DNA of 64,000 bases from Dictyostelium discoideum (taxonomy: Eukaryota): the NCBI GenBank assembly GCA_000004695.1, contig CM000151.3, forward strand, positions 8,320,001-8,384,000, read 5' to 3'. A program made the translations under genes and the position numbers. Below the pieces are notes generated by a model that worked only from the letters and a program-made list of their open reading frames with translations, was not told the DNA's origin and did not search any database. Of this stretch, positions 53,298-55,811 are shown one piece after another. Numbering within the stretch: the stretch's first letter is position 1; each line of letters opens with the position of its first letter.

Positions 53298-54765
53298 CTA
53301 ATTCATCATAAAAGTTTTATTAATTTCAATAAAACTTGGAATTGAATCTAAATCTAATAAATTTGGGTTGAAACCATCACATAAATGTAATTCTTTTAAA
53401 GATGAAGGTAACGAATTTGTAGTGATTTCTTTTTTAAGATTATAAATAAATAATTTTTTCAAAGTGTTTGGCAGGATGTTTGGTTGAGTTATTGGATGAC
53501 TGTAACCTTTTAATTGAATTTCAGAGATATTGGTACAATGAGATAGTGAACCAACATCAATTGGTTGTTTAATATCGTATAGAATTAATTTTTCAATTGA
53601 GTTTGGTAAAAAACTAATATCCAATTTATGAGAAAAGTCATCATAACAATATAACCATTTAACATAAGGGATTGAATTGGAGGGTATAGGTTTTATAATA
53701 TTATATAAATGTAAAAATAAAATAGATCTTGGTATAACATTTTCATCTATTGAATGAGAGAATCTACCACATAGGAATAATTCAGTGACAGAGTTTGGTA
53801 TTGAGCCTGGTTTTGGTGGGTATTTAATATCATACATTCCAAGTTTTTGAACAGAACTTGGAATGATTCCAGAGATTAAGGGTTGATTGAAACCATTACC
53901 AAGCCTAAGATATGTTACAGACAATGGAATTGAACCAATTAAAAGTGGATATTTTAAAGAATAAAGAAATAATGAAACCACATTATCTGTAATTAAACCC
54001 GGTATTAATTGTTGGTCAGGTCCACCATCAATATAGAAATGTTTAATATTGTTTGGTAGCTGTCCAATGATTGATTTAATATTAGCTATATAAAGTGTAT
54101 GAACTGAGGAGGGAATTATAGCGGATGAAATATTTTGATTAAATCCATCATATAAATAAAGAAATTTAATTGAGTTTAATGGTAATTTAACAGAGGAAAT
54201 AGTTGATTTAATTTCAAATATATGAAGTCTTTCAACTGATTGTGGTATGATTTCACTTGTTATCTCTTGATCGAAACCATCTTTAAAACATAAACCTTTT
54301 ATGTCATTAGGTAGTGATTTGTTTGTTAGTGGATATTTTATTTTATGAATATGGACCGATTCTAATAAGGTTTTACATAAACTATTTCTAGTTGGAATCA
54401 TATTTGAAGTTATTGGATGATTAAAATCATTTAAAAAGTATAACCAACGTACACTATCTGGTATTGATTGTCTTGATAATGGTTCTTTAATTTCACCAAT
54501 GTATAAAGAATGAATTGAATTTGGAATTATACCTTGATCTAAACTAAATTTATAACCACATTTTATATTCAAAAATTTAACATTGTCTGGTATTGAAAAT
54601 TTTGTCAACGGTTTATCAATATCACCAATATATAATTTTTCAATTGATTTTGGTATTACTCCTTCCCCAATTTCATATTTATATCCATCACAAATTATTA
54701 ATTTTTTTATATTTTTTGGTATTTTTATTAATTCTAAATTACAATTATTTCCAATTGATAATTTA
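53298..54765 (-). CDS. FNIP-repeat protein. It has no in-frame ATG and may be the 3' exon of the upstream B-box gene.
   Basis: Repeated units …FNQPL/FNHPI…IP.SV..L.. throughout, as in the Dictyostelium FNIP repeat. The open frame extends to 54797 with no ATG. An acceptor ATTATAG at 54766/54767 fits a phase-2 intron from 54927. Confidence 0.55.
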
Positions 54766-54923
54766 CTATAATCATTTTGAATTATTGTTTCATTATTATC
54801 AATTTTAAAAATAATATCATTTACTAAATATTATTAAAATATATTAAAAAAAAATAAAAATAATATTAATATAAATAATTATTATTTTATTTTAATTATA
54901 TAAAACTTTTTTTTTTTTTTTTT

Positions 54924-55811
54924 TTACCTACATTTTAATTGTTTATTAATCATTAAATGTTTTAAATTTTTTCTATCTTCAAATGGTTTAATATCAATGG
55001 TTGTAATTGATTTAATTGAACTATTAAATAAATCTATTGATTCTTTATTAAATGAAATATCAAAATCATTAAATAAATTAAAATTGCTATATTTCCTACG
55101 TGAAATTATTTCATTTGAAATTTGATTATCTTTTAATATTGAAATTAAATTTAAATTTTCTTTATCATTATTATTTTCTTCATTACAATAATTATCACTA
55201 TTATTATTATTATTATTATTATTATTATTATTATTATTATTATTATTATTATTATTATTATTATTATTATTATTATTATTATTATTATTATTATTATTAT
55301 TATATTTTTTTAATAAATTATTTATAACAATTTTGTCATTTTCTAATTCTGATTTATTTTTTAAACATTTAATACGATTTGATTCTAAAAAACTATTACA
55401 TTGTTTTATTAAATCTAATTCAACTATTGATAAGAGATTATGAAGTTGTCTAAATTGATTATTAATTCTCTTTATGGTTGAATCATGTCTTTCTGTTAAT
55501 AAATCCATACAATCATCTAATTGTTGCATTAAAAAATCATCTAAATCCATAAAGCTTGATAAAGTATTTAAGTGTTTATTTTTAAAATCTTTAAATATTG
55601 ATTCAATTTTTTTGTAACATATTGATAAAAAACTATGACCTTTATGATTAATCGTTTCATTATTCTCTCCCTCATCATTACACATACATTTCAAACATAA
55701 TGGCATATTATTACAATTTTCACAAAAACTTATAATTTCATTTTGATGAATATTACATTTACTATCATTTTCATCCTTTTTATTATTATTATTATTATTG
55801 TTAATATTCAT
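54924..55811 (-). CDS. B-box-type zinc-finger coiled-coil protein. It may continue into the FNIP exon by splicing out its TAA.
   Basis: ATG at 55811 gives MNINNNNNNNKKDENDSKCNIHQNEIISFCENCNNMPLCLKCMC…HKGH (B-box C/H pattern), then a helical region and polyN. The last codons are …KQLKC R*. The stop overlaps a GT donor (TGTAG|GTAAAA). Confidence 0.55.
   Translation of the reverse strand: MNINNNNNNNKKDENDSKCNIHQNEIISFCENCNNMPLCLKCMCNDEGENNETINHKGHSFLSICYKKIESIFKDFKNKHLNTLSSFMDLDDFLMQQLDDCMDLLTERHDSTIKRINNQFRQLHNLLSIVELDLIKQCNSFLESNRIKCLKNKSELENDKIVINNLLKKYNNNNNNNNNNNNNNNNNNNNNNNNNNNNNNNNNNSDNYCNEENNNDKENLNLISILKDNQISNEIISRRKYSNFNLFNDFDISFNKESIDLFNSSIKSITTIDIKPFEDRKNLKHLMINKQLKCR

Follow-up and report, generated by a model that had tools for sequence, protein, structure and literature searches.

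The 64,000-nt window analysed here covers positions 8,320,001 to 8,384,000 of the forward strand of Dictyostelium discoideum contig CM000151.3 (assembly GCA_000004695.1, the AX4 reference). On its minus strand, an open reading frame (ORF) coding for a B-box zinc finger and a predicted coiled coil is directly followed by an ORF with FNIP repeats that has no ATG at its start. The two ORFs are one gene, at 53298..55811, whose apparent stop codon lies inside an intron, as a preliminary description of this DNA had proposed. We consider it highly probable that the main form of this two-exon gene has an intron of 108 nt and codes for a protein of 801 amino acids (aa). The 162-nt intron by which the preliminary description had joined the two ORFs is probably wrong. 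The gene structure is ordinary and already known. We found no basis for the suggestion that separate ORF calls represent a mis-annotation, as the base-identical DNA of the D. discoideum strain ACTFIT is already annotated as one 801-aa gene.

In the best-supported model, the gene extends on the minus strand from the ATG at 55811 to the TAG stop codon at 53298..53300. Exon 1 (54932..55811) codes for the B-box, the long helix, a polyasparagine (polyN) tract and short helices, and its 3' end (...AAA T) is conserved in all orthologs. Exon 2 (53298..54823, stop codon included) differs from its counterpart in Dictyostelium citrinum by 174 substitutions and no indels. The intron between them (54824..54931, phase 1, 95% A+T) runs from GTAGGT to TATTTAG. 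If unspliced, the B-box ORF codes for a 295-aa product and ends with the TAA codon at 54926..54924, which falls within the 108-nt intron. The sequence features listed in the preliminary description are all present on the minus strand where it had placed them, with one adjustment. The FNIP frame is open upstream to 54830 and not, as had been stated, to 54797. It begins with 143 codons that include no ATG, and its earliest in-frame Met is at 54401.

The ortholog loci were fetched via the syntenic lipase gene. A single gene call directly follows the lipase gene in each of six genomes, with products of 801 aa in ACTFIT (call L004:7983-10496), 802 aa in ACTFIW (KAM9955670.1/ACTFIW_002310, hereafter P0001), 812 aa in ACTFIR, 908 aa in D. 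citrinum, 745 aa in Dictyostelium cf. discoideum (ACTFIY) and 743 aa in Dictyostelium purpureum. The latter, DICPUDRAFT_152220 (P0002), is annotated as a 'B box-type domain-containing protein' with zf-B_box and FNIP domains. These single calls, the ATG-less FNIP frame, the architecture shared with paralogs and the purifying selection on the gene, with ratios of non-synonymous to synonymous substitution rates (dN/dS) of 0.17-0.22, lead us to conclude that there is a single gene. Alternatively, the transcript might not be spliced at all, with a 295-aa B-box/coiled-coil product and a separate FNIP ORF that either has a non-ATG start or is a dead remnant. The unspliced AX4 ORF does stop right at the start of the intron, and the AT-rich gap contains strings resembling AATAAA, but such strings are too frequent genome-wide to be informative. 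The immediate stop is not conserved, as read-through in ACTFIW and ACTFIR enters a poly-Lys stretch. Moreover, despite its 143 codons without ATG, the FNIP frame has a dN/dS of ~0.2 and no indels relative to D. citrinum, and orthologs and paralogs generally have the fused architecture. We thus regard the absence of splicing as extremely improbable.

All GT..AG pairs in the gap between the two ORFs were listed and tested for frame and stop codons, which yielded exactly two stop-free solutions. The first is the intron of the preliminary description (54766..54927, GTAAAA...ATTATAG, phase 2), whose sequence details were correctly reported. The B-box ORF ends with ...AAA TGT AGG TAA, the TAA overlaps the donor AG/GTAAAA (the slash marks the splice site) with its first G at 54927, and the acceptor ATTATAG ending at 54766 restores the FNIP frame. 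Joining 54928 to 54765 is stop-free and removes 162 nt (94% A+T), and the resulting 783-aa product reads ...KQLKCSKLSIGNN... across the junction. The second solution has its donor at 54931 (AAAT/GTAGGT) and its acceptor at 54824 (TATTTAG/TA), the latter located in the extra upstream stretch of the FNIP frame that reaches 54830. The donor and the acceptor of the 162-nt intron are thus 4 and 58 nt, respectively, downstream of their counterparts in the 108-nt intron. Across the latter, the 801-aa protein reads ...KHLMINKQLK-LNDIIFKIDNNETIIQNDYSKLSIGNN..., and it retains 19 residues, LNDIIFKIDNNETIIQNDY, where the 783-aa product has a single Cys. The two models therefore differ in the status of 58 nt (54766..54823), which are exonic and code for (L)NDIIFKIDNNETIIQNDY(S) with the 108-nt intron and are intronic with the 162-nt intron. 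Further in-frame pairs found in a wider scan cut into clearly conserved exon sequence.

Comparisons with the orthologs favour the 108-nt intron. The ACTFIT gene, 2514 nt in length, has exactly the DNA sequence of window positions 53298..55811, and a product of 801 aa can be obtained from it with a single intron only if this intron is of 108 nt. P0001 is 95% identical to the AX4 product, and both P0001 and P0002 read ...KQ[LF]K-LNDIIFK..., i.e. the junction generated by the 108-nt intron. When threaded onto the other loci, the intron is found at the same codon position and in phase 1 in ACTFIW (122 nt), ACTFIR (115 nt), D. citrinum (85 nt) and D. purpureum (86 nt), and in these four genomes this position is the only single-intron solution that fits the length of the called product. 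For ACTFIW and D. purpureum, the threaded intron was checked against the deposited protein sequence. The D. purpureum intron has the donor GTATGC and cannot be aligned to that of AX4. The 15 nt that follow its acceptor are identical to those of AX4, as are 23 of the first 26 nt, and a TTT>TTC change within the latter stretch is synonymous. The block KHLMI[ND]KQ[LF]K/LNDIIFK[IY]D, which in D. purpureum reads KHLMIDKQFK/LNDIIFKYD, is continuous only across this junction. In the ACTFIT, ACTFIW and D. purpureum models, the locus similarly follows an Abhydro_lipase gene and has two exons, with the position and phase of the intron as in AX4. The differences are of strain or species level and concern the lengths of the polyN tract and of the intron (85-122 nt) as well as an 18-nt C-terminal indel. 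That indel maps to 53298..53320 (minus strand), such that the AX4 and D. citrinum proteins end with ...SFIEINKTFMMN and those of ACTFIW and ACTFIR with ...SFIEIK. Synonymous divergence between AX4 and ACTFIW or ACTFIR is ~0.07-0.08 in the gene, with ~94% DNA identity over the locus, which seems high for strains of one species, given that the ACTFIW and ACTFIR assemblies are labelled D. discoideum.

The 162-nt intron fares less well in these comparisons. It has no equivalent in D. purpureum. In ACTFIW and ACTFIR, with ORFs that are intact apart from this, its donor is GTTAAA, and eukaryotic donors rarely have T at position +3. None of the public gene models that we examined uses the corresponding junction, which would delete 19 residues that are kept as far as D. 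purpureum and in part in paralogs.

The disputed 58 nt, which would be intronic in that model, behave like coding sequence. No indels were found in them or in the 60-nt flanking exon pieces between AX4 and three strains and D. citrinum, compared with four to seven indel events in the 108-nt intron in each of those four comparisons. Some of the substitutions in the 58 nt are synonymous (AAT>AAC, ATT>ATC, TTT>TTC). Relative to D. citrinum, the 18 codons have a dN/dS of 0.25, from small numbers of changes (two synonymous and three non-synonymous), and exon 2 taken from acceptor 54824 has a dN/dS of 0.21. We also scored codons by a log-likelihood ratio whose two training sets were confirmed AX4 coding sequence and intergenic DNA of the window. 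The disputed codons score +4.7 bits, against means of 11.4 (standard deviation 6.7) for coding windows and -17 for noncoding windows, and the 108-nt intron scores -22 to -35. A value of +4.7 bits is reached by 2.9% of noncoding windows and by 9.5% of those that are open. Finally, the paralog clade of DDB_G0272809 keeps the equivalent segment, HLM[IL]NKKI-QPYNIDY.

With respect to splice signals, published data on D. discoideum introns (PMC2483917) give a median of 103 nt, an A+T content of 89% and one peak of poly-T, located 15-40 nt before the acceptor. The 108-nt intron conforms to this description, with its GT...AG ends, a length close to the median, 95% A+T and an upstream poly-T tract. 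The fraction of T at -40..-15 is 0.77 for acceptor 54824 in AX4. In every genome, it is 0.54-0.81 for this acceptor and 0.27-0.31 for acceptor 54766, which has no poly-T tract upstream.

Several points weigh against the 108-nt intron. Its donor, GTAGGT, deviates at position +4 from the local GTAA pattern, as all 11 unambiguous donors in neighbouring gene calls start with GTAA, to which GTAAAA is closer. By motif strength alone, TAG/GTAAAA is thus better than AAT/GTAGGT in AX4, which makes the choice of donor in the preliminary description a reasonable one. In ACTFIY, the upstream donor reads GCAGGT and the downstream one, GTAAAA, is intact, and with the 162-nt intron the T>C change would be a synonymous change of the Cys codon. 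We gave less weight to this GC donor as evidence for the 162-nt intron, since exon 2 of the ACTFIY copy (L006:6922-9448) has frameshifting deletions of 2 and 7 nt as well as a premature stop, and its 745-aa model is odd. This copy is probably degenerate or poorly assembled and may be a pseudogene. The gene models of the ACTFI* assemblies probably come from one shared pipeline, and hence they are not independent of each other. In the AlphaFold2 model of P0001, the disputed residues are part of a linker of low confidence (predicted local distance difference test, pLDDT, <50 at 290-318), and the structure prediction, which we considered as an arbiter between the two junctions, was of no help in choosing. 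Lastly, we infer the use of splice sites in AX4 from sequence comparison.

Taking these points into account, the 162-nt intron, although in frame and stop-free, is very unlikely to be real or to be the main one, and it would at best represent a minor alternative. The primary transcript would thus contain one short, AT-rich GT-AG spliceosomal intron, most likely from 54931 to 54824, the splicing of which would remove the in-frame TAA and join 54932..55811 to 53298..54823. The donor that looks best, GTAAAA overlapping the stop codon, is therefore probably not used, and the weaker-looking donor 4 nt upstream is favoured because of cross-species conservation, the indel pattern, the position of the poly-T tract and codon usage. 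This is a useful lesson of method.

Alternative splicing with both junctions might take place in AX4, and the resulting isoforms of 801 and 783 aa would be distinguished by the linker that connects the helices to the FNIP solenoid. Either pair of sites keeps the frame in both AX4 and D. citrinum, the donors are only 4 nt apart with the conserved one looking weaker, and the variable segment is predicted to be a flexible linker. Nevertheless, the pair that defines the 162-nt intron is not conserved, with a GTT donor in two strains and no counterpart in D. purpureum, and chance in-frame GT..AG pairs are common (7-19 per ortholog in a 460-nt scan). We deem such a pair of isoforms quite unlikely. 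More broadly, regulated use of both site pairs, or retention of the intron, giving 801-, 783- or 295-aa forms in AX4, is improbable. If it did occur, the 295-aa B-box/coiled-coil product could block the full-length protein by pairing with it via the coiled coil.

No exact matches were found for the 783-, 801-, 295- and 367-aa products, and on that basis we had considered the AX4 gene unannotated. This was dropped after a control, because the 812-aa product of ACTFIR, the 908-aa product of D. citrinum and the 801-aa product matching ACTFIT are also missing from the collection searched, which makes the absence uninformative. The control products of ACTFIR and D. citrinum were reconstructed from their gene calls, each of which allows a single one-intron solution. 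Homology searches with the full protein were initially swamped by polyN words and returned four matches, and they were rerun without the polyN tract. Among the matches of the protein homology search, there were no transcript-derived fragments of the B-box/FNIP gene. In Dictyostelium firmibasis (L008), considered as a source of an ortholog of intermediate distance, the gene is absent beside the syntenic lipase gene and tblastn gave no match; the syntenic site holds a NAD-binding/epimerase-like gene instead. Considering this absence together with the frameshifts, the premature stop and the GT>GC donor change of the ACTFIY copy, the B-box/FNIP gene looks evolutionarily unstable.

The domain content announced in the preliminary description, with a B-box, a coiled coil, a polyN tract and FNIP repeats, was recovered in our analyses. 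The B-box zinc finger (PF00643) comprises residues ~16-64 (55620..55766, minus strand), with profile matches to the B-box2 domain of TRIM proteins. All eight potential ligands are present with B-box spacing, C19-x2-H22-x7-C30-x2-C33-x5-C39-x2-C42-x13-H56-x2-H59, and the corresponding columns of the family alignment show almost no variation. The native AX4 sequence covers profile positions 3-42 of 42, and it scores 17.8 bits against a cut-off of 24.1. This score is below the threshold because of an acidic 10-residue insertion, CNDEGENNET, which separates the third pair of Cys from the last pair of His (residues ~44-54, 55635..55680, minus strand). The score rises to 37.9 bits when the insertion is removed, and it is 35.6 bits for the D. 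purpureum ortholog. The insertion is found in D. discoideum, occurs as a variant in D. citrinum and is absent in D. purpureum. Thus, the B-box is real but diverged, and zinc binding is predicted from its sequence.

The B-box is followed by a long predicted alpha-helix (AX4 residues ~61-175, 55287..55631, minus strand), based on the AlphaFold2 model of P0001 and on an alignment with the TRIM coiled-coil profile. In that model, which has a mean pLDDT of 76.9, the helix spans residues 68-182 (~115 residues, pLDDT 65-84) and is a probable coiled coil. The order of the elements in the model is a small B-box, the helix, the disordered polyN tract, three short helices, a linker and a solenoid of ~22 strands from residue 321. 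The polyN tract corresponds to an (AAT)n microsatellite (55162..55303, minus strand) coding for a run of 34 Asn that is predicted to be disordered and is highly polymorphic between strains. In ACTFIW and ACTFIR, K, S and D residues break up the tract, and the D. citrinum protein has an extra run of 59 Asn at its N-terminus. Searches for RING-type families gave no match at E <= 0.1 with the full protein or at E <= 10 with the N-terminus, and there is no room for a RING domain because the B-box begins at residue ~16. With no RING detected, E3 ligase activity cannot be inferred.

The FNIP repeats form a predicted leucine-rich repeat (LRR)-like beta-solenoid of ~22 strands (53301..54764, minus strand), as indicated by PF05725, profile matches to PDB entries, AlphaFold2 and Foldseek. 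PF05725 matches 11 stretches (E = 7.7e-57), and its score of 189.6 bits exceeds the cut-off of 21. In the model of P0001, the strands are regularly spaced at residues 321-782, mostly with pLDDT >85. The best Foldseek match is 6nyr (CroV588, 'circular LRR', E = 6.4e-20), followed by other LRR proteins, and the family profile matches CroV588 and CroV539 in the PDB with E values of 5.5e-104 and 4.2e-25, respectively. CroV588 (6nyr) and CroV539 (7zal) are giant-virus proteins of Cafeteria roenbergensis virus that form LRR-like solenoids of FNIP/IP22 repeats, like the AX4 protein. These matches involve only the repeat region (query profile positions ~293-605), and they are therefore uninformative as to a shared B-box/coiled-coil module.

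The combination of B-box and FNIP domains is a recurrent, already known architecture in Dictyostelium, and the search for other such proteins called for in the preliminary description returned several. Two AX4 paralogs, DDB_G0290679 (815 aa) and DDB_G0272809 (648 aa), have zf-B_box and FNIP domains, 30-37% identity with the protein studied here and a shared HLMxNK block before the solenoid. They differ from it in the number of repeats and the length of the linker, and paralog relatives are found in D. purpureum, D. citrinum and Dictyostelium dimigraforme. A third D. discoideum protein, AreA (DDB_G0279871), has B-box and FNIP domains and binds Atg101, and its loss raises autophagic flux; its B-box was also reported to be TRIM-like (PMC4554924). 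AreA carries a DUF4559 domain, which Pfam scans did not detect in the protein of the window. AreA was not among the homologs retrieved with that protein, and thus it is at most a distant paralog.

The B-box/FNIP gene starts 175 nt downstream of the gene for the carboxylic ester hydrolase EAL68535.1 (UniProt Q86KU7; 55987..57795, minus strand). Exact matches to AX4 chromosome 2 proteins were obtained with five long ORFs of the window, among them those for EAL68535.1 and ApeA (apeA/DDB_G0277701, 47690..48775, plus strand). An assembly gap of 100 N is present at 50655..50754. Its left flank (37563..50651) aligns to ACTFIT JBTAPE010000033.1 from 4689794 down to 4676839 and its right flank (50755..63823) from 4739431 up to 4752468. 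Since the flanks are ~62.6 kb apart in ACTFIT and in opposite relative orientation, there is an inversion or a scaffold-orientation error between the AX4 reference and ACTFIT, with one breakpoint in the gap. The Q/N-rich 610-aa ORF at 50776..52608 (plus strand) is apparently only the 3' part of an 825-aa ACTFIT gene (L004:11185-13662), with its 5' end in the gap. On the other side, ~50230..50651 is part of a 505-aa ACTFIT call (L003:12537-14054) that is likewise cut by the gap.

By profile searches, the B-box2/coiled-coil regions of TRIM3 (8amr), TRIM28/KAP1 (6qu1) and TRIM5 (4tn3) match positions ~15-165 of the family profile with E values of 1.5e-6 to 6.5e-4. As in TRIM proteins, the B-box of the AX4 protein is directly followed by a long predicted coiled coil. 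Known C-terminal domains of TRIM proteins include PRY-SPRY, NHL and PHD-bromo. Unlike TRIM proteins, the AX4 protein has no detected RING domain and has a C-terminal FNIP/LRR solenoid. It thus resembles a RING-less, TRIM-type B-box/coiled-coil scaffold with an LRR-like domain, but it is not a member of the TRIM family. By analogy, the B-box and the ~115-residue helix would dimerise like the coiled coils of TRIM proteins, and the two C-terminal FNIP/LRR solenoids would bind partner proteins, in parallel with AreA and Atg101. We put forward this scaffold function tentatively, as a possibility that falls somewhat short of even chances. The corrected junction alters 19 linker residues in an uncharacterised member of a large, dictyostelid-specific family and is of little wider import. 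For the gene product itself, the likeness to TRIM proteins and the precedent of AreA and Atg101 suggest a role as a protein-binding adaptor, which by the same analogy may be dimeric.

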